A DNA stretch of 64,000 bases. Origin: a virus. Taxonomy: Duplodnaviria; Caudoviricetes. A program made the position numbers and the translations under genes. Positions 5,928-53,355 of this stretch are shown piece by piece (within the stretch, counting starts at the first letter, position 1; every line of letters begins with the position of its first letter). The notes under the pieces are model-generated. The model was given only the letters and a program-made list of their open reading frames with translations, had not been told where the DNA came from and ran no database searches. The DNA lies in IMG/VR virus record IMGVR_UViG_3300028887_000079, positions 32,001 through 96,000 of that record. One strand, written 5' to 3'.

Positions 5928-8384
5928 CTACCAATTTTGGGTTGCAGTAACCAATTCATCCCTCAGGTTGTAAACCGTATCGATGGCATCCTTCAAGCGC
6001 GAGGCGAATTCATTCATTGCCTTGAACTCCATCCGGACATTTTGCCCATCATCACCGGGAAGCTGCCCAATGAAGTGGGCGCCATTATCCGGACCATCCG
6101 CGACAATGCCAAATTGATTGAGCAGGTCATCCAGCTCGGCACGGCGCTTGCCGCCATCGCCACACAGCGGGGTGAGCGAATCCGCAAGCAGCCACAACTC
6201 GTGGATCAAATCCATCACGGACCACTTTTCCGGGTCTACATATTTGGGCCAGCGCGGGATGGCGTTGGTCGCCAAACTATACATGTATTGGACGCCGTCC
6301 GGACTTTCCGCGTCCACGCGCTGCAGGCTTGCAAGACTTGGGAAGTCCACCCCAAATGCCTGCGAGGGTGGCGGGACGACATACACGGAACACGTTTCGC
6401 TCGGGAAGATATGCACAGTGTAACTTTCGGATCCGCGACTCATTGTTTCTTTGTGGACCGCCTTACTTGTCGCAATGTATTTCAAAACACCAACACGGAT
6501 AATGTTGTCCGCGAAAATTATTTCGGACGGCTCATTTTCGTTGTAATAGACGTGGTAGGAATTCTTGATGCGTTTGTATTTTTTGCGGAACGATTCGTAT
6601 GGGACAACTTCATAGTTCCACGGATACAGACCTTTGAGATCGCCGTAAACGCCGATTGCGGCGAACATCGGTTGGCGCCCTCGATCAATCTTGCGGCCGA
6701 TTTCCGCGTCCACATCAATCTCCATCGAAAGCGTATTCGTTGCCGCCGTGTAGAGCGGGGCAGCCGGATTCTTGGCAAGATACTCCGCCACATACTCATA
6801 AATCTCGGACAAGTGCCCGCTTGCCTTATTCGTGTAGAACGCATACGGCATCCCGAGTTCCGGATCATCCTTTTCATAGGTGTCCAGCAACGCGGTCATC
6901 TCTTCGGTAGGCGCCTCCTCCTGAATCTTCTTGAGGAACTCGACTAGGTAACCCAACGGCGGGCTTTGCCAAGCAGCCGAAGCGTAAGGGCGCCCCCAAT
7001 CGCCAACCAAATCGTCATTGTAAGGCGTAGGGAATTGCTCGTTATACGCTCTACTAAGCGCGTTTATTGCATCGCAAAATGCGGTAAACTCCGGAAGGGA
7101 AGTTGCCACATCTTCACAAATGTTGTAGGCAGCACTAACTTCAGGCGGAATGTGCGTGATAATGCCGTGCCCGGAATACGTCCAGCTTCCAATAAATTCA
7201 GCGGCGCCCTCCTGATTTTCCGCCAAAAGGGTATCGCGCTTCTCCGTGGTCTCGGGGTCCTCCATTTTAGTCAACAATGCGGCAAATGCGGCATCGACCT
7301 TTGTGAAGGCTTCCATCAGCGGATCATCATACAAGGTGACCGGGAAACTTTCGTTCTTTTGGACATACAGCTGAGAAAAAGTATGTCCAACGCGAAGCGG
7401 AGTGCCAAGCGGGTGATTGTGCTTGCGCCTGCCGAATCCGGCGGTGAAGGCGCCTCCGGTCAATTTGCTGGAAGCCGCCGACAACAATTCATTCACGCTT
7501 GTCGCGTTGGTATAGTTGCTGCGCCAATACTTGTATGCCTTTTGGAACGCTGCGCGAGATTTAGGCGTAAGCACATCCCAAGTGGTCGGATCGTCATAGC
7601 TGAAATGACTGGCGATCTTCTGCGCCGAGTTGTGTTCGTAGTCGAATACCGGAATCGGCATCGGGGCAAAGTTATCGGACCCCGGTATGGGGTTGTATCT
7701 GTCAAGGCCGCTGTTGCTGCTGTCCGGGAACTGGCCGTTGTCTTCCGGCTTGTAGAAGTATGCGCAAGTAACCTGAGGGCAAATGCTGTCCGTCAACGGC
7801 AGCCAAATTTCCTTCGCATAAAGCCAGCCCCAAAATTGAGTGAGTTGCGTGATGTATGATTCATAGCGCATGAGCCCATTCGTCATAGAAAGGAGCGCAT
7901 ATATTGTCCCCTTGATGGCGCCTTTGAGATTCGACATCAAGTCGGCACCGATCGAGGCGCCTTGGGAAGACAGCGTTGCCAAGGTATCCCAAAGCACCCA
8001 GTAATTCGCTTCGCCTACATAACGGCGGAGGATGGGGTTGGAATCAAGCAGGTCAAACGCATCCCGCGCAATATCAAGATTCATTCCGGCGGAGAAGTCG
8101 GCGCCGGCGTCATTCAGGTTCTTGAGGATTTCCTGATACTTGTCCGCGATCTCCTTGCATTTCTTTTCCAGCTTAGAGACCATCTTGTCCATCTTTTCAA
8201 GGACATCCGCCTTGCCTCGAATAACAAACTTCAAGGCATCGAACATCGTATCATAGACGTTGCACGCGGTATCAATGGCAGCACCCACAAACTTGTCGTT
8301 GCGGTGGTCCTCTTGCATTGACTGGTCGTCAACATATTTTTCATTAGGGGCGCTGTCCCCGAAAAGGCTTCCAAGAAAACTCAT
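5928..8384 (-). CDS. large hypothetical protein (probably structural)
   Basis: 818-aa ORF in the late-gene region. Confidence 0.6.
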   Translation of the reverse strand: MSFLGSLFGDSAPNEKYVDDQSMQEDHRNDKFVGAAIDTACNVYDTMFDALKFVIRGKADVLEKMDKMVSKLEKKCKEIADKYQEILKNLNDAGADFSAGMNLDIARDAFDLLDSNPILRRYVGEANYWVLWDTLATLSSQGASIGADLMSNLKGAIKGTIYALLSMTNGLMRYESYITQLTQFWGWLYAKEIWLPLTDSICPQVTCAYFYKPEDNGQFPDSSNSGLDRYNPIPGSDNFAPMPIPVFDYEHNSAQKIASHFSYDDPTTWDVLTPKSRAAFQKAYKYWRSNYTNATSVNELLSAASSKLTGGAFTAGFGRRKHNHPLGTPLRVGHTFSQLYVQKNESFPVTLYDDPLMEAFTKVDAAFAALLTKMEDPETTEKRDTLLAENQEGAAEFIGSWTYSGHGIITHIPPEVSAAYNICEDVATSLPEFTAFCDAINALSRAYNEQFPTPYNDDLVGDWGRPYASAAWQSPPLGYLVEFLKKIQEEAPTEEMTALLDTYEKDDPELGMPYAFYTNKASGHLSEIYEYVAEYLAKNPAAPLYTAATNTLSMEIDVDAEIGRKIDRGRQPMFAAIGVYGDLKGLYPWNYEVVPYESFRKKYKRIKNSYHVYYNENEPSEIIFADNIIRVGVLKYIATSKAVHKETMSRGSESYTVHIFPSETCSVYVVPPPSQAFGVDFPSLASLQRVDAESPDGVQYMYSLATNAIPRWPKYVDPEKWSVMDLIHELWLLADSLTPLCGDGGKRRAELDDLLNQFGIVADGPDNGAHFIGQLPGDDGQNVRMEFKAMNEFASRLKDAIDTVYNLRDELVTATQNW

Positions 8385-27436: not shown

Positions 27437-29710
27437 TTATGCATCCTCCGCCAAGCTGATTTCAAGTGACTGCGTCTGCGGGTAGGCGGTAACGTAGATG
27501 TCCACGTAACGGCCAACGCCCTTGAAGCGCACCGGGAAGTCGAAGCGCATAACCTTGTCACCGATAATGTTCTTGTCGGCGTTCGGCTTGCCTTCTTCAA
27601 TGTAGTTGCGTTCCTTGAAGGTCTTGTTCAGGCTCTTCAAAACGCGGACGCCTTCGTTGATGGTCGGCACATCATTGTATTCCGCAACGAACGGACGCAT
27701 TGACTGGTAGATCATGTATTTCATCCAGCAATACGAAAGAATGACGTGCGTGTCGGAAAGAGCCGTGTCCGTGAGCTGGGAGGTGGTTTCTTCCCAAAGA
27801 TAGAAGCCGCCTTCATTGATACACGGATTGAGCTTGTAGGTCTGTGCAAGAACCTTGCGCTGCGGTCCGGTGTATTCTTCGGACAACTCTTCGCACTGGA
27901 TTTGACCATAAGAAAGACCCATCGGAGGACGAGCCTCGTTGCCGTTCTTATAGTTGTTGTTGAGGCAAAGAGTAACCAATGCCGCAAAGGTCATCCACAT
28001 GCGGCGGCCAGCAACAGTCTTGCGGCCATACTGCGGGAAGTCCGCAATGAAGCGGTTGCCGTGGCGGCCGCCCAAGTTCGAGAATACCGCGAGAGATGCA
28101 GCCTTGCCGATGTTGGTCACGCCAAGGGTCGTTTCGCTAGCGGCTTCAATCACGCCCAAGAAGTCCGGCACGTTCATCACGTCACCGAGGTTTGCCGTAA
28201 CCACGCAGCGATGCTTAGTCAGGTTGTCCCCGGCGATTTGGCGAAGAGCCAACGCATAAGCGTAAGACTTCTGCCCCGGAACGATCGCATTGGATTCCAA
28301 GTCGCCAGTGCCATCGAAATACTGCGGGGTCTTAATGAAAAGACTCGGCTCGGCGGGTTCATCCTCGCCAGCAATGATCGCGGCATCGACATCGCTTTGG
28401 AAGTCAATCTCATAATCGTCAAACACTTCACTGGTGCGGGACACGAGGTAGTTCGAAGAAGCAAGGACAGAGTCAAGCTGCATCGAAACATAGGAGCCAT
28501 CATAGTCATCGTAGTTGAAGCTGGCGATGTAGGTTTCCTTCAAGTAGGCGGAGTAGCAAGATGCCCACACGGCATTTTCTTCGCCCATATACATGTAGTT
28601 CTTGCGGTTTTCGAGGTAAAGACCCGTTGCAATCGCAAATTCCACAGTTGCCATTTCGCCGTCCGCATCCGGGGTGACGGAGACCGAGCCGCAACCATAG
28701 TTGAGGTAAGCGGTGCGAGCCTTGCCTTCTTCCGGAACGCCCTGGGCGCTTGCGGAGATCGAGATGGAGATCGAAAGGTTAAAGCAGTTGAATGCGCCGG
28801 CGGCAACCGTAAAGGTGCCATCGCCATTCGACTTGAAAGAGGTAAGGACCGGTTCGCCCTTCGAATCCTTCGCAGCAAGGACAGCGTCTTCGATAGCCTT
28901 ATACACGGATCCGCCGGTATACGGCGCCGTGCCCTTGCAGCCATTCACAAAGGCGGTCACAAGGTTGGTTGTGCCAGTCGAGGAGCCTTCGCCCGAAGAA
29001 CCGGAATCAAAGGACAACTCATAGCCATCCAAATGAAGCATGTCGGAGTCGCCGGATTCGCCACCGCCCAAAACAGGATCAAGACTCGGAGTCAAACCCA
29101 AGACCCCGGGCATATCCTTGTCAATGTGGCGGGCGCCAGCAAAGTCAAACACCTGAAGCTGGAAGGCGCGATGTTCATCCGCATAAGCGGACTTGGTAGC
29201 AGGTTCACTGAAGCGGAGGACGATGTTCGAATAGTTGGCGGGGTCGTTGCCCTGACCAATAACCTTCGAACAATAGTTACCTTCACCCTTGAAGAAGAGC
29301 AACGCGGTGTTCTTGTCCGCCGGGGTGGCAATGGCATTCGAGTTGGCGTTCGGATCGATGAACAGCTTTCCACGAATGCCCTTTTCCGGATCGGCGCCCT
29401 GAATGCTTACGCGCATACAGCCGAAAACCTGGTCGCCCGGTTCAATGCTCGGATCCTTTGCACGGGAAATCACGAGAGGCACATTGTGCTGTGCCAAGAA
29501 GTAGGCTTCCATGTTTGCCTGACCATACTTATCGAAAGCAGGGTTGCCAAACACCTTCACAAAATCATCTGCACTCGTGATAAATACCGGCTTGTTGCAA
29601 AGGCCGCGTTCCGCTTCCATCGCAACGGCAGCCTTGAACCCATCCGCAGAAGCGGGGCGCTGGGACTTATCAACGAGAATTACGTCAGTTCCGGCGGAAT
29701 CATTAACCAT
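27437..29710 (-). CDS. tail sheath protein
   Basis: ERGLCNKPVFITS.DDF.KVFGNP N-terminus; ARPPMG, LNP, AEYND C-terminal sheath motifs. Confidence 0.85.
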   Translation of the reverse strand: MVNDSAGTDVILVDKSQRPASADGFKAAVAMEAERGLCNKPVFITSADDFVKVFGNPAFDKYGQANMEAYFLAQHNVPLVISRAKDPSIEPGDQVFGCMRVSIQGADPEKGIRGKLFIDPNANSNAIATPADKNTALLFFKGEGNYCSKVIGQGNDPANYSNIVLRFSEPATKSAYADEHRAFQLQVFDFAGARHIDKDMPGVLGLTPSLDPVLGGGESGDSDMLHLDGYELSFDSGSSGEGSSTGTTNLVTAFVNGCKGTAPYTGGSVYKAIEDAVLAAKDSKGEPVLTSFKSNGDGTFTVAAGAFNCFNLSISISISASAQGVPEEGKARTAYLNYGCGSVSVTPDADGEMATVEFAIATGLYLENRKNYMYMGEENAVWASCYSAYLKETYIASFNYDDYDGSYVSMQLDSVLASSNYLVSRTSEVFDDYEIDFQSDVDAAIIAGEDEPAEPSLFIKTPQYFDGTGDLESNAIVPGQKSYAYALALRQIAGDNLTKHRCVVTANLGDVMNVPDFLGVIEAASETTLGVTNIGKAASLAVFSNLGGRHGNRFIADFPQYGRKTVAGRRMWMTFAALVTLCLNNNYKNGNEARPPMGLSYGQIQCEELSEEYTGPQRKVLAQTYKLNPCINEGGFYLWEETTSQLTDTALSDTHVILSYCWMKYMIYQSMRPFVAEYNDVPTINEGVRVLKSLNKTFKERNYIEEGKPNADKNIIGDKVMRFDFPVRFKGVGRYVDIYVTAYPQTQSLEISLAEDA

Positions 29711-33097: not shown

Positions 33098-34795
33098 TTA
33101 GCCCTGAGAGCCAGCGGAGCTGTTGCCACCCACCGCGTTGGTGAGAGCGACAACTGCGTCCGGAGTGACCACCGGAGCCTTGGTCAGGACGATGCGAACC
33201 ACGAACTGCGGGACGACCGTTTCGATGGCCTTCCAAGTTGCGATAGCACGCATGTTCTGGAACGGGTTGTTGGCAACCTTGAGGGTGTCCGTGAGGAACG
33301 CCGGCATGTAAGTTGCGTCAACCACGGCAGCTTCATACGGGCTGTTCGGGTTGAGGTAGCAACCGAGGATTTCGTTCGGAGCCACAACAGTGTTCGAACG
33401 GATCACAGTGATGCCTTCGTTTTCGAGGGTTCCGAACACATGCGGGCCAATGCCGTTCTGTGCAGGAGCCTGACGGAAGCCGTCAAGAGCAGCGATGTAT
33501 TCACATGCTGCGTAGCCAGCCACGATCTTGTTGATGCGGCCGCGACCGGTGCGGGTGCCGATGAGCGAAGAGCCAGCGTTGATCGTGAAGAGCAAGCTCT
33601 TACGATGCTGGGCTTCAGCGATACCGACCGGGCAGTTGACGCTCCAAGTGAGCGGCTTGCCGTTTGCATTGGCAGCCTTCTTGAGGGCGCCGATGACCTT
33701 TTCGGATTCGGCCATAGCGAGGTGGCCGGAAAGGTCGGCAACCATATCGTCTTCAGCGGACTTGCCGAAGCGCTTTTGGAACTGGTAGGACTTGAAGTCG
33801 CCCTGGAGTTCCTTCACACCGAAGATGTGAGCGGTCACGAAGGTGGACGTGGTGGCGGATTCGATGGTCGGAACATCCGGAGCCTTTTCGAAGTCCACAT
33901 CATAAGCGACAGCGCCGCCGATGATTTCCTTGCCCTTGATCTTGCCATCGAAAATGAGGACGAGATCGTTGCCCTGCGGGACGACTTCAGTGTTGATGCC
34001 GTTGCCGTAGAAGGCGGGGAGCTGACCCGGACCATCGCAGACACCCTTCAGGTCCACGAAGTCGCCGTCTTCGTTCACGAGGCGGACATCCATCGGAACG
34101 TTCCAGCGGGTGTTGCCAATGACGTTGGCGAGCGTGACAGTGCCGTCAACCACCTTGGCGAACTGGCGTTCACTCATGTAGGCGGTCGGAGAGGACACCC
34201 AACCCTTCAAGGCACTGAAGGTAATGGCGTCAAAGTTCTTGGCGGAAATGTCTTCGGACGGGAGCTTACCGGCAGAAGAAGCACCTTCGGAACCCGTGGG
34301 GGCGCCGCGATGATCGTGCCAAGTTTTCCACATGCCGTTGAACTTGGAGCCCGGTTCGTTGCCATCTTCGTCCATCCAGCCATCGTTCGGAAGAGCGCGA
34401 AGGCCTTCGGTAGCGGTGAACGGATAGCCGTGCGTGAACACCTTCTTGAAGTAGATGATGCCCTGGCATTCATCGATGTTCTGCATCGAGGCGAGCTGCG
34501 GTGCAACAGTGAGGCCGTAGGTTGCGCTGATCAGGTCCACGGCAATGCTGGGAAGCTTGCCAAGGGAAGCAGCGGAAGAGCCGCCGGACACGAGATCAGA
34601 TTCGTAACGCTTGTAGGCATCGAGGTTGGAGCCGAGAACAAAACGAGCGTTGTCATCAAGGCCACCCTTGTAGGAATTGGACTTGGCGAGGGCTTCGAAC
34701 TGTTCGGCATAACGGCGGTCGAAAGATTCAAGCTGGCGAGCGTGCTTGGCAGCGAGAACATTATCGTCCATCTTTTCGGTAGTAGGCTGTGCCAT
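33098..34795 (-). CDS. major capsid protein (T4 gp23-like)
   Basis: SMQNI....GIIYF, TGRGRINKIV, YEAAVVDATYMP motifs; strongest codon bias; terminator downstream. Confidence 0.85.
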   Translation of the reverse strand: MAQPTTEKMDDNVLAAKHARQLESFDRRYAEQFEALAKSNSYKGGLDDNARFVLGSNLDAYKRYESDLVSGGSSAASLGKLPSIAVDLISATYGLTVAPQLASMQNIDECQGIIYFKKVFTHGYPFTATEGLRALPNDGWMDEDGNEPGSKFNGMWKTWHDHRGAPTGSEGASSAGKLPSEDISAKNFDAITFSALKGWVSSPTAYMSERQFAKVVDGTVTLANVIGNTRWNVPMDVRLVNEDGDFVDLKGVCDGPGQLPAFYGNGINTEVVPQGNDLVLIFDGKIKGKEIIGGAVAYDVDFEKAPDVPTIESATTSTFVTAHIFGVKELQGDFKSYQFQKRFGKSAEDDMVADLSGHLAMAESEKVIGALKKAANANGKPLTWSVNCPVGIAEAQHRKSLLFTINAGSSLIGTRTGRGRINKIVAGYAACEYIAALDGFRQAPAQNGIGPHVFGTLENEGITVIRSNTVVAPNEILGCYLNPNSPYEAAVVDATYMPAFLTDTLKVANNPFQNMRAIATWKAIETVVPQFVVRIVLTKAPVVTPDAVVALTNAVGGNSSAGSQG

Positions 34796-44486: not shown

Positions 44487-44885
44487 TTACTTGATTGACG
44501 GACTGGTCAATTCCCAAGGGAACTCAAACCACGCCTCGCTATCCTTATGCAATTCCGGGACGAACAGCCCGCAAAGATCCGGCTGGACTTTCGCGGTCTC
44601 CTTCGAGACATCCGTGTAGAAAATCGGGTTATACTTTTGATAGTCAACCAACGTATTTCCGGTGTCACAAATATCGTCCACAATAAGGCAGCCTTCACGA
44701 GGCGCCGTCAAAAATTCAACCTTCAGCAGGTGCGAGAAAAGGACCGCAAGGCAGGCGCCACCGCGAGGGATGCCATACACCCCATTCACGAAGCGCTTAG
44801 TCTTCACAAGTTCCTTTGCCGCAGTGCCTGCCGAAAGGACAACATCTTCCCAAGTGCGATGGACAACTCTAGGCGTTTGCTTCAT
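44487..44885 (-). CDS. type I phosphoribosyltransferase (purine PRT-like)
   Basis: YGIPRGG, LIVDDICDTGNT, WFEFPWE. Confidence 0.85.
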   Translation of the reverse strand: MKQTPRVVHRTWEDVVLSAGTAAKELVKTKRFVNGVYGIPRGGACLAVLFSHLLKVEFLTAPREGCLIVDDICDTGNTLVDYQKYNPIFYTDVSKETAKVQPDLCGLFVPELHKDSEAWFEFPWELTSPSIK

Positions 44886-45576
44886 ATTCAATCGGATCCT
44901 TTGTTCCGTTTGCTTCAAAAGCAGCCTTGCGGTCAATGCAGGTGCCGCACGTGCCACAAGCCTTTTCGCCGCCCTTATAGCAGCTCCACGTCAATTCGTA
45001 AGGAACTTTCAGGCGCAAGCCCTCGGCGACCACGCCAGCCTTGTTCAGGTTGATGAGCGGGCGCCAAACGTGAATCTTTCCGTAAGTGCCGATCGAAATG
45101 GCGTTATCCATAGCATCGGCGAAGGCGGGAGAACAATCAGCGTATGCCTGCCCGGCGGCATCATCCGCATGTGCGCCATACACAACCACGGCATCCTGAC
45201 CGGGGAAGAGGGAATCGGCGTAAGCGGTAGCGATGGACAAAAGCAAGCCGTTGCGGAACGGGACGTAAGTGCCAACGCGGCCTTCACCATTTTCTGCGAT
45301 CTGTTCGGCGTAGGACTTATCCGGAATTTCCGTCTTGGAATCCTTCATGAGCGAGCAAACATCGCCGGCATACTTCATCACGCAAGAAATGTCTTCTTCG
45401 ATATGGCGGACGCCATAATGTTCGGCGACCTTGCGAGCGCATTCAAGTTCCTTGTCGTGGCGCTGCCCGTAATAGAGCGTGGCGGTGACAACATTTTCCT
45501 TGCCATACTTTTCAATGGCGAGGGCAACACAGGTGGTAGAATCGACTCCACCGGAATTCAAAACCAATGCCTTCAT
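44869..45576 (-). CDS. queC: 7-cyano-7-deazaguanine synthase
   Basis: SGGVDST, YGQRH, YVPFRNG, YADC, TWSCY, CGTCGTCIDR. Confidence 0.95.
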   Translation of the reverse strand: MKALVLNSGGVDSTTCVALAIEKYGKENVVTATLYYGQRHDKELECARKVAEHYGVRHIEEDISCVMKYAGDVCSLMKDSKTEIPDKSYAEQIAENGEGRVGTYVPFRNGLLLSIATAYADSLFPGQDAVVVYGAHADDAAGQAYADCSPAFADAMDNAISIGTYGKIHVWRPLINLNKAGVVAEGLRLKVPYELTWSCYKGGEKACGTCGTCIDRKAAFEANGTKDPIEYEANA

Positions 45577-45620
45577 TTGACATTCTCCTATTTGAAATGT
45601 TTATACGCAAAAAGGACACC

Positions 45621-46385
45621 TTAGAAAGTGTCCCAAATGAGCTGGTTCAACTTGGCGACTGCACAACTAATCATATGCCCGCGGTTGTATCCGTAAGCCC
45701 GGATGAACTCCGGAACGGATGTGACCGGCTTGATGTAGGTGAACGAGTCAACCGAATCAAAGTCAATATAGCGTGCGAGTTTGGAAGTGATGCCGAGGCC
45801 GTGAATATGCACATCGCGAGCGCGGGCATACCAAACGAGTTCACGCATCAGGCGGGCAACATCGTGGCAGTTCGTCAAACCGGATCCGGCAACGCCACCA
45901 ATAGCGAAGAAGCCGCCGGGGCCGACCTGCTGGCAGTAATCGGCGAACTTTTGAATCGGGTCAAAGATATGCCAAACGAGGGTAGGTTCCTCGCCGACAA
46001 GTTTGATGAGTTTGTCACGGAGACGCGCATATTCCTTTTCGCCAACCACGGACTGAATATCCAGTTCGAAGAAGTGAGTGAAATACTTGCGGTATTTCTT
46101 GATGAAAGCCGCGTAGTCTTCCACATACTTGTCGAGGTTAAATTCGCCCTTGAGTTTGCCCTTCTTGTGCGCCATCATCATAGAGAAGGCGCCGGAGTCA
46201 AGCAAGATTTCTTGTCCCGGTTCGGGACCTGAATAAAGCTCCAGCGCCTCCTCAACGCGCTCGGGGGATGCCTTGGACAAGTAATAGAACGACACAAGGC
46301 AATACTTGAATTTGTATTTACGGAATGCTTCTTTCGAGACGGACGCATGAAGCTTTCCGATGTCAAGACCGGCGTAATACTTCAA
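45621..46385 (-). CDS. dpdA: DpdA-like / TGT-fold base-exchange transglycosylase
   Basis: LLDSGAFS, ELDI, VWH, IGG, HIHGLG, DSVDS TGT-barrel motifs; located between ParB-like gene and queC. Confidence 0.65.
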   Translation of the reverse strand: MKYYAGLDIGKLHASVSKEAFRKYKFKYCLVSFYYLSKASPERVEEALELYSGPEPGQEILLDSGAFSMMMAHKKGKLKGEFNLDKYVEDYAAFIKKYRKYFTHFFELDIQSVVGEKEYARLRDKLIKLVGEEPTLVWHIFDPIQKFADYCQQVGPGGFFAIGGVAGSGLTNCHDVARLMRELVWYARARDVHIHGLGITSKLARYIDFDSVDSFTYIKPVTSVPEFIRAYGYNRGHMISCAVAKLNQLIWDTF

Positions 46386-46396
46386 AGCGGACCTCC

Positions 46397-46990
46397 TTAC
46401 ACCTTGTCCCAACCGATAATGTCAAAGTTTTCTTCGCCTTCGGAATTATCGTTGACCGGACCTTCGGAACCATCAACATCCACCGGGCATTCAGGTTCAG
46501 CGGCGGGCGCATTGGATTCGCCAACAATTTCGGAAGCGATGCCTGCTTCTTGCGGGAGCATGTTGCGCTTCTTGAGAATCTTGGGATCGAGCGGGCGGAT
46601 GTTCTTGATGTCCGTGATGATGTTTTTCATTTCAACAAGATACTTGGAGTGAACGCGGCCGCCCATAATTTCCTTCGCAACGGAAGCAAAGTCCAGCTTA
46701 CCGAGGGACTGTGTCACGTTGTCGATAATGCGGAATTCGTCTTCAGCCTCCTTGTCAAGGTCGGAGATGATGCACGGAATTTCGGACAAGCCAAGTTTCT
46801 GCGCAGCCATAAGACGGCCGTGGCCGGTGATGACAACATGTTCGGCGTTCACCACAATCGGAATTTGGAAGCCGAAGCATTCAATGGAGTTCGCGATCGA
46901 GTCCACATTGTCTGCGTGAGTCTTGTTGTTGTTCTTGTAAGGATAGATGTCCTTTACGGGGAGATAAACGATTTCGAGTTTTTTAGTCAT
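46397..46990 (-). CDS. ParB/Sulfiredoxin-like N-terminal domain protein
   Basis: PY.NN, SIECFGFQIPIVV, GHGRLMAA, RIIDN. Confidence 0.85.
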   Translation of the reverse strand: MTKKLEIVYLPVKDIYPYKNNNKTHADNVDSIANSIECFGFQIPIVVNAEHVVITGHGRLMAAQKLGLSEIPCIISDLDKEAEDEFRIIDNVTQSLGKLDFASVAKEIMGGRVHSKYLVEMKNIITDIKNIRPLDPKILKKRNMLPQEAGIASEIVGESNAPAAEPECPVDVDGSEGPVNDNSEGEENFDIIGWDKV

Positions 46991-47007
46991 AGTAACCAAA
47001 TATACGA

Positions 47008-48091: not shown

Positions 48092-48165
48092 AACCCGTTA
48101 CCGGACTTGAACCAGTGACTTCCCGGGAGTGACCACCCGAGCTCTACCAACTGAGCTAAACGCAC
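48092..48165 (-). tRNA. tRNA-like / pseudo-tRNA, 8-nt anticodon loop (UGGUCACU)
   Basis: canonical D-arm UAGCUCAGUUGGUAGAGC and T-arm; weak acceptor stem. Confidence 0.6.
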
Positions 48166-48400
48166 AAAGGCTCCGACAGCATTTCAAACTTGCGGTGTGC
48201 CCTAGCCCGGTGGGCGATGCGTTCCTCGTAAGGACGGAGCATCTGAGCATCACCAAACACAATATACAAAATGTTCGTCCGCTTCTACTTATTACCCCCA
48301 GCCCTTTCGGCCGCCAGGGACAAACATAAGGTCCGATCCCGAATCGTTTGCGCATGATGCCCAAGCCTAGGACGAGGCACGCACGCCTTCTTTTATGTAG

Positions 48401-48475
48401 GGGCAGGAGCCGGACTCGAACCGACAACCTCAGGGCCGAAACACCCTGCGCTCTCCCAGTTAGAGCTATCCTGCC
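48401..48475 (-). tRNA. tRNA-like, 8-nt anticodon loop (UGUUUCGG)
   Basis: perfect 7-bp acceptor GGCAGGA/UCCUGCC, D-arm and T-arm present; non-canonical loop. Confidence 0.7.
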
Positions 48476-48769: not shown

Positions 48770-48895
48770 AATTCAAGTAGGCGCTGCCGGGGCTTTCCGC
48801 TTCCCTATTGGGTTGCCGCGTCTTGGCTTCGAACCAAGGGAGCGACCACCGGGCTTGGACCCTATTTCATCAGTGCGACAACGCCTGCTTGAATT
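48770..48895 (-). ncRNA. structured RNA with long terminal stem and T-loop hairpin
   Basis: ~20-bp closing stem; CUUGG-UUCGAAG-CCAAG. Confidence 0.55.
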
Positions 48896-49177: not shown

Positions 49178-49296
49178 AATCTCAATGCTTCTACCGGCGT
49201 TAAGCGGATCCAATGGCGACTAACCTGACCCGGCACGGGTGCGACCCGATTTTCAATTAAGCCCACAAAGAACAACGGAATGGGCGCACTGAGATT
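49178..49296 (-). ncRNA. structured RNA unit
   Basis: 11-bp closing stem AAUCUCAGUGC/GCAUUGAGAUU, internal hairpins. Confidence 0.5.
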
Positions 49297-49300
49297 TTAA

Positions 49301-49454
49301 TGGACCTGCCTGGAGTCGAACCAGCGCATCCTCAACATCGCTTCTGCCTACCGATTGGCTGTAGCGGTTTCCCGCCCAGTGTTTACACGCACCTTATTTC
49401 AGAGCTATCGGCATATTGCGTTGGTTTGAGGCAAGCCCACGCGTTCGCAAGCCC
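49301..49454 (-). ncRNA. mini-tmRNA-like RNA (G3:U70, A73)
   Basis: GGGCUUG/CAGGUCC-A acceptor, UUCGACU T-loop, extended CCUCAA/UUGAGG helix. Confidence 0.6.
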
Positions 49455-49466
49455 AAGATTTTTTAG

Positions 49467-49644
49467 CAGCACCCGCCGGGATCGAACCGGTAGGCTTCCC
49501 AAGGAACATCCTACTACAAGCTTCGGATTCTATTACAAGGGTCGCCAGCGCAGAAACATTGCAATGCCGCTGCCATTTAGAACGGAACCAACCTTCACCT
49601 CGGGCAAGTTTGCAACCCTGCCTCCGGCTATCCGTTCAGGTGCC
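49467..49644 (-). ncRNA. tRNA-chassis RNA with ~145-nt insert
   Basis: GGCACCU/GGGUGCU acceptor; CCGG-UUCGAUC-CCGG T-arm. Confidence 0.6.
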
Positions 49645-49659
49645 AAAAGATTTTTTTAG

Positions 49660-49733
49660 TAGCGGGGGCAGGACTCGAACGCTGCGACCTCGTGGTTATG
49701 AGCCACGCGAGCTACCAACTGCTCTACCCCGCA
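49660..49733 (-). tRNA. tRNA-Met(CAT), initiator-like
   Basis: cloverleaf, loop CUCAUAA, 1:72 mismatch, bulged T-stem. Confidence 0.85.
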
Positions 49734-50351: not shown

Positions 50352-50356
50352 ATTCG

Positions 50357-50709
50357 TGGAGGTGGCGGGAGTCGAACCCGCGTCCAAAAATACTTACGCG
50401 CTTGCTACTACACGCTTTTTCCTTGCATTTGCTCTCGCCTTGCCACGCCCAAAAGGAAACGGCGATGCTTCGGCCTACAGCGACAGATTTCGGATATGCG
50501 CCTCGCTGTCAAGCTTCTATCCTAGCCCGATTTGCGACTCGGACTCCATCCCTACGGGCGGCGAGGTGGGTCCAAGGGTTGCCCTAAATTAGGCAGCCTG
50601 TGCTACAGGTGCAGCATTTATTTTTTACAGACTTTTTTACGAGTGCCCACGTCTGTGACCTCGGCGTGCAACTTGCGTATCGGTATCCCTGTCGAAACCA
50701 GGCACCCCC
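50357..50709 (-). ncRNA. ssrA: tmRNA, tag (A)AAPVAQAA
   Basis: 5' GGGGGUGCCUGGUUUCGAC; 3' GACGCGGGUUCGACUCCCGCCACCUCCA; G3:U70; resume codon after AUAAAU at 50615. Confidence 0.92.
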
Positions 50710-50715
50710 GATAGT

Positions 50716-50928
50716 TTAAGCCTGAGCCGGAGCTTCAGCCGTTTCGGTCTTTTCAGCCTTGGCGCCCTTTTCGGCAGCCTTGGCGGCCTTTTCGGCAGCG
50801 CGTTCAGCCTTGCGCTGTTCACGGAGCGGGGTCAGTTCGGCGAGAACGGCGGCGGTGTCCTTTCCGGCCTTCTTGAGGGTGGAAGCCTTGTGGGCGAGTT
50901 TGCGAATCTTCAACTGTAATTCGGTCAT
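50716..50928 (-). CDS. small basic helical protein heading the RNA operon
   Basis: AAGGAG RBS, high-expression codons, stop just upstream of the tmRNA 5' end. Confidence 0.75.
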   Translation of the reverse strand: MTELQLKIRKLAHKASTLKKAGKDTAAVLAELTPLREQRKAERAAEKAAKAAEKGAKAEKTETAEAPAQA

Positions 50929-50969
50929 TTTGATCTCCTTGGTTAAAATGCCAGTTAAATGTCCTCTGT

Positions 50970-50978
50970 AATATACGG
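50970..50978 (-). promoter_or_regulatory. CCGTATATT promoter driving the tmRNA/ncRNA operon
   Basis: same motif precedes many minus-strand genes. Confidence 0.6.
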
Positions 50979-51034
50979 ACTTGTGGACTCATTGGCAATG
51001 CCCGCCCGAAAAAAGTCCATTTTTCTGCAAAAAC

Positions 51035-51066
51035 GGGGTGTCTTTTTCAAAATACGGATGTATATT
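51035..51066 (+). promoter_or_regulatory. early promoter GGGGTGTCTTTTTCA-N11-TATATT
   Basis: exact motif copy. Confidence 0.8.
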
Positions 51067-51109
51067 ATAGACATAGCCCGCAGGTAGCGGGTAGACAAGG
51101 AAAGAAATT

Positions 51110-51391
51110 ATGGAAGATAATAAGAAGAAGCCCCTCTACCGCCTCGGGACCGCTATGGAACGCGCTTTGTTTGCCAGCGGAAAAGCACAATACTTTAATG
51201 AATGTGCCGAATATCATCGCGCCATTTGGCGCAAAACCCGCTCACAAAAGCGTGCCGCCCACGCTATGGCGTGGATCTCCAAGATGCTCAAAAAAAAGGA
51301 ATTTTGGATGAAAGCCGCAGAATACTGGGGCAACAAGATTTGTGAAACATACCGCCTCGGGCAGTCCGCCCGCGTTATTTTCGGAGTATAG
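51110..51391 (+). CDS. hypothetical protein (paralog of 51401-51649)
   Basis: shared MER.LFA...FW.KA..Y..KI. Confidence 0.7.
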   Translation: MEDNKKKPLYRLGTAMERALFASGKAQYFNECAEYHRAIWRKTRSQKRAAHAMAWISKMLKKKEFWMKAAEYWGNKICETYRLGQSARVIFGV

Positions 51392-51400
51392 GGGGCGCCG

Positions 51401-51649
51401 ATGAAAATCCCATTGCTCAAAACTAATATGGAGCGCCTGCTTTTCGCAGCATCCCGCCAGCGCGTTTTCGAAGAGGCGGCCGAAACGCATAAGCAACGCG
51501 CCTGCCGTGCGCAGCGCCCGGACACATACCGGAAAGCATACCGCCTCGCAGTCCTGACCTTAAAGCGAGCCAACTTTTGGAATAAGGCCGTCAAATACTA
51601 CGCGGCGAAGATCAAAGGCGCCGACTATTTCATCACACGTTATTTATAA
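51401..51649 (+). CDS. hypothetical protein (paralog of 51110-51391)
   Basis: shared MER.LFA...FW.KA..Y..KI. Confidence 0.7.
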   Translation: MKIPLLKTNMERLLFAASRQRVFEEAAETHKQRACRAQRPDTYRKAYRLAVLTLKRANFWNKAVKYYAAKIKGADYFITRYL

Positions 51650-51661
51650 AAGGAGTCCATC

Positions 51662-51970
51662 ATGACAAAAGCAACAGAAACCAAATTCTCCAGCGAAGAA
51701 ACTTTCGTCCTCGGTCTTTTCGTAAAGGCCCATAACGGCAAATCGTGGGTCGCCTTCAGGGAGACCGCCAATAGCATCTACATGTCCGCTACCGCAACCG
51801 GAAAGCAGGTCAAGAAGATCGAAATCACAAAAACGTCCGATACCGGCTTTCAGGTCGAAATCTCAAGCGGCCATTTTGTGCGCTGCCACATGCACTGGTT
51901 AGGCTCGCTCACAAACCTGCTCCGCCGTATGGAACTTGAACTGATTCACCCCGAATTTCAGGAGGACTAA
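51662..51970 (+). CDS. hypothetical protein
   Basis: AAGGAG RBS. Confidence 0.7.
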   Translation: MTKATETKFSSEETFVLGLFVKAHNGKSWVAFRETANSIYMSATATGKQVKKIEITKTSDTGFQVEISSGHFVRCHMHWLGSLTNLLRRMELELIHPEFQED

Positions 51971-52091
51971 CAATGAAGTCCGTATCTTATGAAACACTCC
52001 GCCGCATTATGGCGGACCGCATTGCAAGTCGCTACCACGATGCCGCCATCAAGGCCGTGCGTGAACGCCACGCCAACAAAGGAGATGCAAA

Positions 52092-52337
52092 ATGAGAATC
52101 ACATATGAAGATGTCCCAATAGCGTTTGCCGTGAAACATCGCGCCGAATGTGAAGCGGAATGCGATAGCGAAACCTCGCTTACCTGCTATTGTGGCAGGC
52201 TGGCGACCGGTTTCCACACTATGAATTGCAGCCGATACAAGAAGAAACTTCAGGCGAAGATCACCGCCCGCTATCGTGCAGCGTTGAAAACAATGAAGGC
52301 GAGCGCCGCAAACGCCCCCGCAAAGGCGGCAGTATGA
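52092..52337 (+). CDS. hypothetical Zn-binding protein
   Basis: CYCGRLATGFH...C. Confidence 0.65.
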   Translation: MRITYEDVPIAFAVKHRAECEAECDSETSLTCYCGRLATGFHTMNCSRYKKKLQAKITARYRAALKTMKASAANAPAKAAV

Positions 52338-52576
52338 TCGCTATACGCCATATTAGAAAAGAACGCGAAGGCAGAAAAACCGTAGAAAAGGTCTACGGCG
52401 ATCCCATCAAGTTTTTAGATTTACAATCGCAAGCGGCCGCGTTTGTGCAAAACTGGAATAGCGGATCGATGCTGTCGAGAGTTACGGCGGAGAATTGGTC
52501 GCCCGCGCAGTTTGCCGAATGGGTGCGCGAGCAGCTTGAAAACATCGCCAACCGATTGGACAACCATAATTTGTAG
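52334..52576 (+). CDS. hypothetical protein
   Basis: ATGA overlap. Confidence 0.6.
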   Translation: MIAIRHIRKEREGRKTVEKVYGDPIKFLDLQSQAAAFVQNWNSGSMLSRVTAENWSPAQFAEWVREQLENIANRLDNHNL

Positions 52577-52584
52577 GAGGTCCT

Positions 52585-52995
52585 ATGTATTTGTTTCGAA
52601 GAGTTATGCAGGAGATAAACGAGACGAAGCACACCGCATTCATCAACGTTTATCAAACCCTCAGCCCCGATTTGAATGACCTGATCAAGTCAGCGAAAAG
52701 CAACGTGGCGCCCGGATTTGATGTCACCATTCGCCGAGCATTTTACACTCCCGCGCCGAATCAGGTCCTCTATCAAGGATGCGTGTTCAGTTGCCGTGGA
52801 TGGTATCGCTTCAAAGACAACGCTACCGGAAACTCCTACTTCACCCGCATGCGCATTTTTATTTACAATGTAGACAACAATTACAGCCCGAATGTGGACA
52901 TTAAGGCGTTTGAGAAAACACCAATCGCGGGCGGGTATGTTGGCGACAACATCGGCGAATTTGACCACTACTACAACGTCCTTTCGATGAGATAA
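52585..52995 (+). CDS. hypothetical protein
   Basis: AGGAGG RBS. Confidence 0.7.
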   Translation: MYLFRRVMQEINETKHTAFINVYQTLSPDLNDLIKSAKSNVAPGFDVTIRRAFYTPAPNQVLYQGCVFSCRGWYRFKDNATGNSYFTRMRIFIYNVDNNYSPNVDIKAFEKTPIAGGYVGDNIGEFDHYYNVLSMR

Positions 52996-52998
52996 AAA

Positions 52999-53100
52999 TG
53001 CAATACGGCGCTTAAATCGCATGAATGCGGCAAAGGCGCCTCTTACTATGGGCAGGCGGAGAAACCGGCTCAAACGCGCGTTTACGGCGAAAGAAACGCT
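52999..53100. repeat. quasi-palindromic element, degenerate copy 5
   Basis: CAATACGGCGCTTAAATCGC...AAACGCGCGTTTACGGCGA. Confidence 0.45.
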
Positions 53101-53112
53101 ACTAGGCGACTA

Positions 53113-53355
53113 ATGGGAAATGAAAAATACATAATCGGACCATATGAAAAAGGAAAGATCTACGAATGCTCTTGGTTTGACAGCCGCATGAATGGGTGCT
53201 CCGCCCGTTTCAAGGCAGTCATGCGCAAGGGCCGCATCGTATTCAACGAGCTGGACTCGTCCAGGGTTCATTCCCCGGAGGAGTTTTATTATATTGGAAT
53301 TGCGAGGGATCAGTATCCGCACGAGCGCATAGTCTTCCAACAAATTGAAGACTAG
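53113..53355 (+). CDS. hypothetical protein
   Basis: ORF in + strand run. Confidence 0.55.
   Translation: MGNEKYIIGPYEKGKIYECSWFDSRMNGCSARFKAVMRKGRIVFNELDSSRVHSPEEFYYIGIARDQYPHERIVFQQIED

Follow-up and report, generated by a model that had tools for sequence, protein, structure and literature searches.

The mycobacteriophage DS6A has a documented transfer-messenger RNA (tmRNA) that consists of the tRNA-like domain (TLD) only, a form also termed 'CDS-less' after the coding sequence (CDS), and a TLD-only RNA like that of DS6A strongly inhibits tmRNA, perhaps via titration of SmpB (PMC4131195, PMC11915505). Here we describe element #1, a 154-nt RNA gene on the minus strand at positions 49301-49454 of a window, the whole 64,000-nt stretch of DNA analysed, which comprises bases 32001-96000 of the 131.7-kb IMG/VR virus record IMGVR_UViG_3300028887_000079 (rated 100% complete). 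To judge from its sequence and that of its relatives, element #1 is probably a genuine small-RNA gene of a phage RNA array and under selection. It appears to work like, or at least looks like, the tRNA-like domain of tmRNA with a foreign body, and our first-ranked, though tentative, reading is that it is a non-decoding mimic of the top half of tmRNA or tRNA-Ala.

The DS6A RNA, which we located at JN698994: 28478-28560, and element #1 are alike in being phage-encoded and in having a 7-bp acceptor stem, a G3:U70 pair, discriminator A73, a T arm and an unencoded CCA; both have a helix, in element #1 a predicted one, at the position of tmRNA helix P2 and neither has an anticodon arm or a tag frame. 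The DS6A RNA is, however, an 83-nt molecule with a simple P2 hairpin and the D-loop motif GGUGGUCGAC, whereas element #1 has 154 nt and a body of ~100 nt without this motif and, unlike the DS6A RNA, coexists with a full-length phage tmRNA. With tmRNA (SsrA) itself, element #1 shares the alanine identity set, an unpaired D region with GG(G) and a predicted long irregular helix ahead of the T arm, but it is without pseudoknots, the UUCGAC and GGAC motifs and a convincing tag, and it falls below the gathering score of the family model. Reduced tmRNAs also occur in plastids (PMC11915505), and among organellar forms without an mRNA-like domain, which are thought to release ribosomes untagged, those of jakobid mitochondria keep G3:U70 and A73 (PMC3590771). 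The organellar RNAs are mostly two-piece or permuted and short (~65 nt upwards), which element #1 is not, and the Rfam mt-tmRNA model gave no match to it.

Two further comparisons concern the build of element #1. The T4 RNAs RNAC and RNAD (species 1 and 2 RNAs) are stable products of the phage tRNA region whose function is unknown (PMC9697503). Like element #1 they are small RNAs among phage tRNA genes that are larger than tRNAs, a likeness drawn by description only. T4 RNAC and RNAD have tRNA-like ends, and we know of no alanine identity in either. In engineered tRNA scaffolds a cargo RNA takes the place of the anticodon arm and tRNA enzymes process and stabilise the chimera; such scaffolds are artificial and keep the D arm, whereas element #1 is natural and has no D stem.

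Anatomy and ends of element #1

Counting from nt 1 at 49454, we read directly the acceptor stem that an earlier note on this DNA had proposed. The 5' strand GGGCUUG (nt 1-7; 49454-49448), which holds the G of G3:U70 and is preceded by an AU-rich spacer ending in AAUCUU as in the adjacent RNA (element #2, below), pairs with CAGGUCC (nt 147-153; 49308-49302) in seven base pairs (G1-C, G2-C, G3.U, C4-G, U5.G, U6-A and G7-C, thus G3.U70 and U5.G68). Discriminator A follows at 49301 (nt 154); like the tRNAs and the tmRNA of this phage, element #1 has no encoded CCA. The T arm (nt 130-146; 49309-49325), (G)CUGG-UUCGACU-CCAG(G), comprises four Watson-Crick pairs plus G.G, has a loop of GGUUCGANUCC type and abuts the 3' acceptor strand; its loop UUCGACU, as described in the note, recurs unchanged in the phage's own tmRNA. 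The D region is indeed unpaired, being a 16-nt linker (CGAACGCGUGGGCUUG) with no D stem, and the anticodon loop is absent as well.

The anticodon arm is replaced by a long irregular helix, predicted only, with its 5' strand at nt 24-48 (49407-49431) and its 3' strand at nt 100-125 (49330-49355), the latter aligned by the Rfam tmRNA model to the 3' strand of P2 (GUAG region). Between them lies an inner domain (nt 49-99; 49356-49406) with single-stranded CUGAAAUAAGG and the hairpins GUG-UAAA-CAC and GGCGG-GAAA-CCGCY. All of the complementary segments proposed for this region (CCUCAA/UUGAGG, CGC/GCG and UGCCGAU/AUCGGUA) are present, as is the GCGG-GAAA-CCGC hairpin. The partition function assigns P = 0.77-0.98 to the helices at 24-29/120-125 and 35-37/114-116; the third helix fared less well, since UGCC/GGCA plus a small hairpin (P ~0.8) is favoured over UGCCGAU/AUCGGUA (P ~0.2) in the inner part. 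An alternative anticodon-like hairpin at nt 19-37 with loop CCUCAAAC had an ensemble probability of ~0 and was rejected. Rfam holds no match for the inner domain, and neither a canonical GAAA tetraloop receptor nor a hammerhead-like CUGA..GAAA motif was found by eye or by Rfam match.

Comparison with the neighbouring genes in the array bears on both ends. The same trailer stands directly 3' of the discriminator in tRNA-Met (CUAAAAAAAUCUU; gene at 49659-49733, minus strand, upstream), in the 178-nt element #2 (49467-49644, minus strand), where CUAAAAAAUCUU forms the spacer at 49455-49466 between the two elements, and in element #1 (UUAAAAUCU or CUAAAAAUU), whose trailer in the window (UUAAAAUCUCAG, 49289-49300) bears the shared YUAAAAA..U motif. 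Elements #2 and #1 each start right at the U-rich end of the preceding trailer. These shared trailers and starts lend support to a tRNA-like 3' end at 49301 and to the first GGGCUUG as the 5' end. The second GGGCUUG to which the note had drawn attention (nt 17-23; 49438-49432) is real and conserved in all four known copies, so that there are two candidate 5' acceptor strands; it could alternatively form part of a GGG-holding analogue of the D loop. The register using the first is favoured by 6 kcal/mol in the window copy, with only 1 kcal/mol between registers in the copy at locus L003 of a sister phage. The Rfam tmRNA model alignment begins at the second, and the 16 nt ahead of it account for two of the seven variable sites. 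Overall, the sequence supports a 5' end at the first GGGCUUG (154-nt form), with the second giving an alternative, 138-nt form.

Distribution and conservation

A loose scan for a T arm with a 7-bp acceptor stem yields ~0.75 matches per shuffled 64 kb. When a T arm with G53:C61, a 7-bp acceptor stem and a length of 95-300 nt were demanded, a scan of both strands of the entire 131.7-kb genome returned only element #1 and its neighbour at 49467-49644, both within the RNA array and on the array's strand.

Element #1 recurs as a discrete module, at 96.1% identity and between unrelated flanks, in three other metagenome contigs, namely the complete sister phage G002 (L003/L024), Ga0310694_10002157 (L023) and Ga0310690_10050333 (L028). 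Homology extends ~17 nt before G1 and ~12 nt past the discriminator, beyond which the flanks differ; within the spacer at 49455-49466 the homology of both elements to other phages stops. Between the window phage and G002, the identity of element #1 (96.1%) is above that of tRNA-Met (90.7%), the adjacent module (87.1%), the tmRNA (83.2%) and the genes for ParB (87.1%), QueC (86.6%) and DpdA (84.4%), with six differences seen against ~23 expected at the ~15% background divergence. The rank of element #1 as the best-conserved sequence of its neighbourhood suggests that it has been under purifying selection or was recently exchanged between phages.

The family is tiny, comprising four contigs. In a blastn search of the array against 50,697 phage records, tRNA-Met alone was found among the matches listed. 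In IMG/VR an 18-mer and a loop-anchored spaced pattern found only the sister genome, while the spaced pattern gave three true copies and six chance matches in JGI metagenomes and ten chance matches with zero true copies in 185,579 GTDB genomes. A covariance model built from the four copies (R1), which scores element #1 itself at 196-200 bits, found no diverged copy in three complete relatives and 12 loci, and blastn-short found no paralogue in the phage genome. Element #1 occurs with a full tmRNA in genomes G000 and G002 and is absent from G001, which has a tmRNA remnant only, an anecdotal pattern with n = 3. Nor is it present in the ~3 kb upstream of DpdA in L006 and L007, the closest relatives by DpdA (96% nucleotide identity), where tRNA-Met is found.

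The four copies represent three distinct sequences with seven variable sites. All four substitutions in predicted helices keep pairing: the T-stem pair 132:144 shows a compensatory change, from U-A in the window to C-G in the remaining three; U6-A148 in the window becomes U6.G148 in the other copies; and 79:92 in the inner-domain hairpin changes from G.U to G-C in two copies. The other three (sites 8, 16 and 129) fall in predicted linkers. Substitutions are unevenly spread, with one per 102 nt in the body (nt 24-125) against six per 52 nt in the tRNA-like frame, and the long helix and, pair 79:92 aside, the inner domain, being invariant, are neither supported nor contradicted by covariation. 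The G3.U151 pair (3:70), whose conservation in homologues the earlier note had proposed as a check, and A154 are kept in all four copies, a result of little power at 96% identity.

Relationship to tmRNA

The note had taken element #1 for a tmRNA-like RNA of alanine identity with no evident mRNA domain. The alanine identity set (G3:U70 and A73) and a tmRNA-like topology, with a predicted helix at the P2 position, are borne out, and so is the want of an mRNA domain: mini-frames such as GCU-CUG-AAA-UAA occur, but we found no convincing resume codon, tag or stop and no pseudoknots, and ARAGORN calls no tmRNA at element #1. Membership of the tmRNA family is not borne out. The best Rfam match is the tmRNA model RF00023 (gathering cut-off 47 bits), which aligns the L003 copy through the acceptor, both P2 strands, the T arm and the acceptor again, with 51 nt standing against 261 model positions, at 17.6 bits (E = 3.5e-5 for a 461-nt search, 2.4e-6 per genome); the window copy attains 4.8 bits. 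Because of these sub-threshold scores and the missing motifs, we do not file element #1 as a tmRNA. Nor does it match a tRNA: RF00005 (cut-off 29 bits) gave no match at E <= 10, ARAGORN was negative, and there is neither a D arm nor a 7-nt anticodon loop. The P2-like helix is predicted at P = 0.8-0.98 and aligned by the model to P2, yet is invariant among the copies.

Resemblance to the phage's own tmRNA, which the note had placed ~0.9 kb upstream and which indeed lies 900 nt upstream at 50354-50709 on the minus strand (156 bits; tag AAPVAQAA*, T loop UUCGACU, G3:U70), is, where the body is concerned, no more than suggestive. The best non-self match of R1 is the 3' 94 nt of this tmRNA at 21 bits, with the array tRNAs at <=9 bits. 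Since the tRNA-Pro of a related contig (L016) reaches 17.8 bits, the tmRNA match may be attributed largely to T arm and acceptor. Derivation of element #1 from the phage tmRNA through the 5' halves was rejected, these being so dissimilar that 374 of 500 shuffles score as well.

Element #2 and the modular RNA array

Element #1 lies on the same strand as its neighbours, between tRNA-Met and two odd tRNAs and 900 nt downstream of the tmRNA. Element #2 has an acceptor stem of GGCACCU/GGGUGCU without G3:U70, discriminator G73 and T loop UUCGAUC; its body, ~145 nt long, bears no relation to that of element #1. Five other contigs (L016:5146-5323, L017:9958-10135, L018:8780-8957, L019:5332-5509 and L020:3029-3206) carry element #2 but not element #1; its identity there is 94-97%, where that of DpdA is only 71%, and in L016 its neighbours are a suppressor tRNA (anticodon UUA) on one side and tRNA-Pro on the other, at distances of 14 and 8 nt. 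This independent movement of element #2 indicates that the array consists of independently shuffled RNA modules and that oversized tRNA-shaped RNAs form a class. Into this informal class, which includes element #2 and T4 RNAC/RNAD, element #1 fits by its acceptor and T-arm ends, tRNA-like spacing, trailers and non-tRNA body. Element #2 also has a hairpin, GGCAGG-GUUGCAAA-CYUGCC, whose 8-nt loop includes UUGCAAA, which we take to be the anticodon loop of E. coli tRNA-Cys. The suppressor tRNA directly upstream of element #2 in L016 (5051-5127) reads UAA.

Other members of the array are unusual as well. The two odd tRNAs (48092-48165 and 48400-48475, minus strand) have abnormal anticodon loops of 6/8 nt or 8 nt; the 8-nt loop is UGGUCACU in the window phage and CGGAUACA in L002, and the other tRNA has a (U)GUUUCG(G) loop on a stem that shows a compensatory A-U to C-G change in L023/L028. 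Counterparts lie at L002:8174-8247 and 7685-7758, L023:5934-6007 and L028:1580-1653. These genes resemble those of non-decoding or quadruplet-type tRNAs. Another tRNA-derived module is a degenerate tRNA-like sequence of 71 nt at 48814-48884 (minus strand), with T arm CUUGG-UUCGAAG-CCAAG and two mismatches in its acceptor stem. The sister phage G001 has a 117-nt tmRNA remnant (L002:7263-7379, or G001:68422-68538; 30.8 bits) made up of the first ~62 nt of tmRNA, novel sequence and the 3' acceptor strand CACCUCC, with no T arm; its locus is without elements #1 and #2 and tRNA-Met.

The window phage is tailed and myovirus-like, with a gp23-like major capsid protein (33098-34795) and a tail sheath protein (27437-29710), and encodes an ATP-dependent DNA ligase. 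Just downstream of the element #1 region and adjoining the array are genes for ParB-N, a DpdA-like transglycosylase and QueC (44869-46999, minus strand), a gene set for 7-deazaguanine modification of phage DNA to which relatives add GTP cyclohydrolase I (L006:10353-11042). From 47.73 to 50.71 kb the window contains zero open reading frames (ORFs) of at least 150 amino acids (aa), and a scan for promoters and terminators gave counts not above those of shuffles. The stretches at 50710-53345 of the window and at 6000-7130 and 7460-8140 of L016 likewise lie beside RNA arrays and have no ORFs of at least 150 aa; no Rfam family reached its gathering score in them, and they may hold further RNAs that are as yet unannotated. 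In a related phage contig, an 816-aa RecA-family gene (L015:1271-3721) with weak LAGLIDADG/Hom_end matches is likely an intein-bearing recombinase.

Interpretation and alternative explanations

The anatomy of element #1, its module boundaries, strong conservation, pair-preserving substitutions and alanine identity set are observed features. An acceptor minihelix with G3:U70 suffices for alanyl-tRNA synthetase (AlaRS), and RNase P, 3' trimming and CCA addition work on acceptor/T-arm minihelices. Element #1 would on this basis be co-transcribed with the neighbouring tRNAs, released at its tRNA-like ends by host RNase P and 3' trimming, and completed by addition of CCA; host AlaRS would then most likely charge it through the minihelix with G3:U70 and A73. 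Given the sufficiency of G3:U70, maturation and alanylation are probable, and having no anticodon arm, element #1 cannot decode. With its D and anticodon arms apparently replaced by the 16-nt linker and a ~100-nt helix-plus-junction domain, a topology that would equal the TLD plus P2 of tmRNA, it may engage host AlaRS, EF-Tu and perhaps SmpB. The outcome could be competition with trans-translation, as for TLD-only RNAs, or tag-free release of stalled ribosomes. The earlier note had further suggested that such an RNA might act as a decoy for toxins that cleave tmRNA or might donate Ala non-ribosomally.

Several observations weigh against this mimicry of tmRNA or tRNA-Ala. Whole-fold stability is no better than that of shuffles (z = -0.71) and the T stem is limited to its four Watson-Crick pairs and G.G. 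Both copies scored with RF00023 are far below its cut-off, the window copy at just 4.8 bits, where the DS6A TLD-only tmRNA attains 43.2 bits. The elbow to which SmpB binds is absent: the D loop has no GG..UUCGAC motif and no GGAC precedes the T stem, the 3' side reading GGAUGC, although the phage tmRNA and the DS6A RNA possess the D-loop motif. The R1 score of tRNA-Pro in L016 comes close to that of the tmRNA; the similarity of the 3' halves of element #1 and the phage tmRNA, while significant against shuffles, is marginal against real genome windows (p ~0.025), and one tmRNA segment aligns to two different parts of element #1. Covariation is not significant with three distinct sequences, being reached in 180 of 500 shuffles, and both members of the compensatory pair are third codon positions, with synonymous changes, in an antisense frame that is open. 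We found no phage-encoded SmpB, RF-1/ArfB-domain protein, Pth or CCA-adding enzyme, so that any role of this kind depends on host factors, and an RNA that titrates SmpB would also hinder the phage's own full tmRNA.

The explanation that we rank second, plausible but somewhat less probable than mimicry, is that element #1 is a natural counterpart of the engineered tRNA scaffold, in which the top half serves as a stabilising handle for RNase P and 3' processing, the ~100-nt inner domain is the functional part (an aptamer, a sponge for proteins or an antisense RNA), and G3:U70 would be incidental and any charging irrelevant. Element #2 has the same build and, with an unrelated body and no G3:U70, is equally conserved (94-97% where DpdA has 71%), which suggests that the common feature of the class is the handle and not alanine identity. 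The extreme conservation of the body of element #1 relative to its frame points the same way, as do RNAC and RNAD as stable RNAs from the T4 tRNA region (PMC9697503). However, the inner domain has no Rfam family, no homologue beyond the four contigs and no covariation, and the occurrence beside a tmRNA of a G.U exactly at 3:70 (prior ~1/16) together with A73 (~1/4) would have to be coincidence.

A bolder form of the favoured mimicry, which we consider rather unlikely, would make element #1 a tag-less, alanine-charged paralogue of tmRNA that enters stalled ribosomes with host SmpB beside the phage's full tmRNA. It would release ribosomes without a degradation mark or, at some particular infection stage, throttle the host's trans-translation, and its 100-nt body would then serve as a new domain, either regulatory or in contact with the ribosome.

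Two improbable explanations, which we hold about equally doubtful, draw on the composition of the array. Element #1 could act as a decoy that draws off a defence nuclease of the host directed at tmRNA, at tRNA-Ala or at tRNAs generally, in an array that gathers non-decoding tRNA look-alikes. Phage tRNAs are able to neutralise tRNA-targeting defences, and several non-canonical tRNA-like genes are assembled here (48092-48165, 48400-48475, 48814-48884 and element #2); but we identified no nuclease or defence partner, element #1 is without the anticodon loop that is the usual target, and the proposal is pure inference. Alternatively, element #1 could be a decaying, functionless remnant of a tmRNA or tRNA-Ala gene after internal deletion or insertion. 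This would agree with an array in flux, in which modules come and go between close relatives and G001 has its 117-nt tmRNA remnant, with the absence of element #1 upstream of DpdA in L006 and L007, the closest relatives by that gene, and with its weak colinear similarity to the phage tmRNA. Decay is, however, at odds with 96% identity in a genome pair whose tmRNA and tRNA-Met have 83% and 91%, with helix substitutions that all preserve pairing, and with acceptor strands and a T arm that are intact in all four copies.

A very unlikely option is an intron-containing tRNA from whose anticodon loop an insert of ~90 nt is spliced. The insert does lie at the usual site of tRNA introns, and CUCAA/UUGAG could pair as an anticodon stem of 5 bp, with a variable loop of 4-5 nt after it; but no split of the flanking bases yields a 7-nt loop with U33 and purine 37, and there is no D stem. 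Introns of bacterial or phage tRNAs are, as far as is known, all of group I, for which a length of 90 nt does not suffice. The intron mode of ARAGORN was negative at default and at a lowered threshold gave only a chimera across elements #1 and #2, and no Rfam group I or II intron or tRNA matched. Scarcely credible, finally, is a plus-strand protein gene (ORF 49300-49659, 119 aa) to which the tRNA likeness would be accidental. In each of the four contexts an antisense frame stays open through element #1 (132-211 codons), and of the seven substitutions three, both members of the compensatory pair among them, are synonymous in it. Yet the frame runs into unrelated flanks and, in L003, over the opposite strand of a genuine tRNA-Met gene, and the remaining four changes replace residues non-conservatively (L/P, H/R, G/S and A/T). 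There is no Pfam match, the two elements covered by the window ORF are found apart from each other in other phages, and element #2 of L016 is only 14 and 8 nt from flanking tRNAs. The antisense frame open through elements #1 and #2 in the window (49261-49656, plus strand) probably stems from the base composition of the strand that encodes structured RNA.

Implications

Phage TLD-only tmRNA and stable non-tRNA RNAs in phage tRNA clusters, such as T4 RNAC and RNAD (PMC9697503), were already known. What is new here is an alanine-type form of 154 nt that has a conserved body of ~100 nt and exists beside a full tmRNA, together with the modular organisation of RNAs of this kind in an array. Element #1 is small, sharply bounded and easily testable as either mimic or scaffold. 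Phage tRNA arrays are usually viewed as a means of codon supply or of countering defence; the array of the window also houses RNAs that keep just the half recognised by tRNA enzymes, their decoding half having been swapped for large conserved domains. Should element #1 prove to be alanylated and to interact with SmpB or EF-Tu, it would join the DS6A RNA as the second, and larger, type of TLD-only tmRNA mimic in phages and would offer a natural tool for studying how phages manipulate ribosome rescue. If its ends are handles only, elements #1 and #2 would be natural tRNA scaffolds for cargo RNAs, members of a class that has barely been described since T4 RNAC and RNAD.

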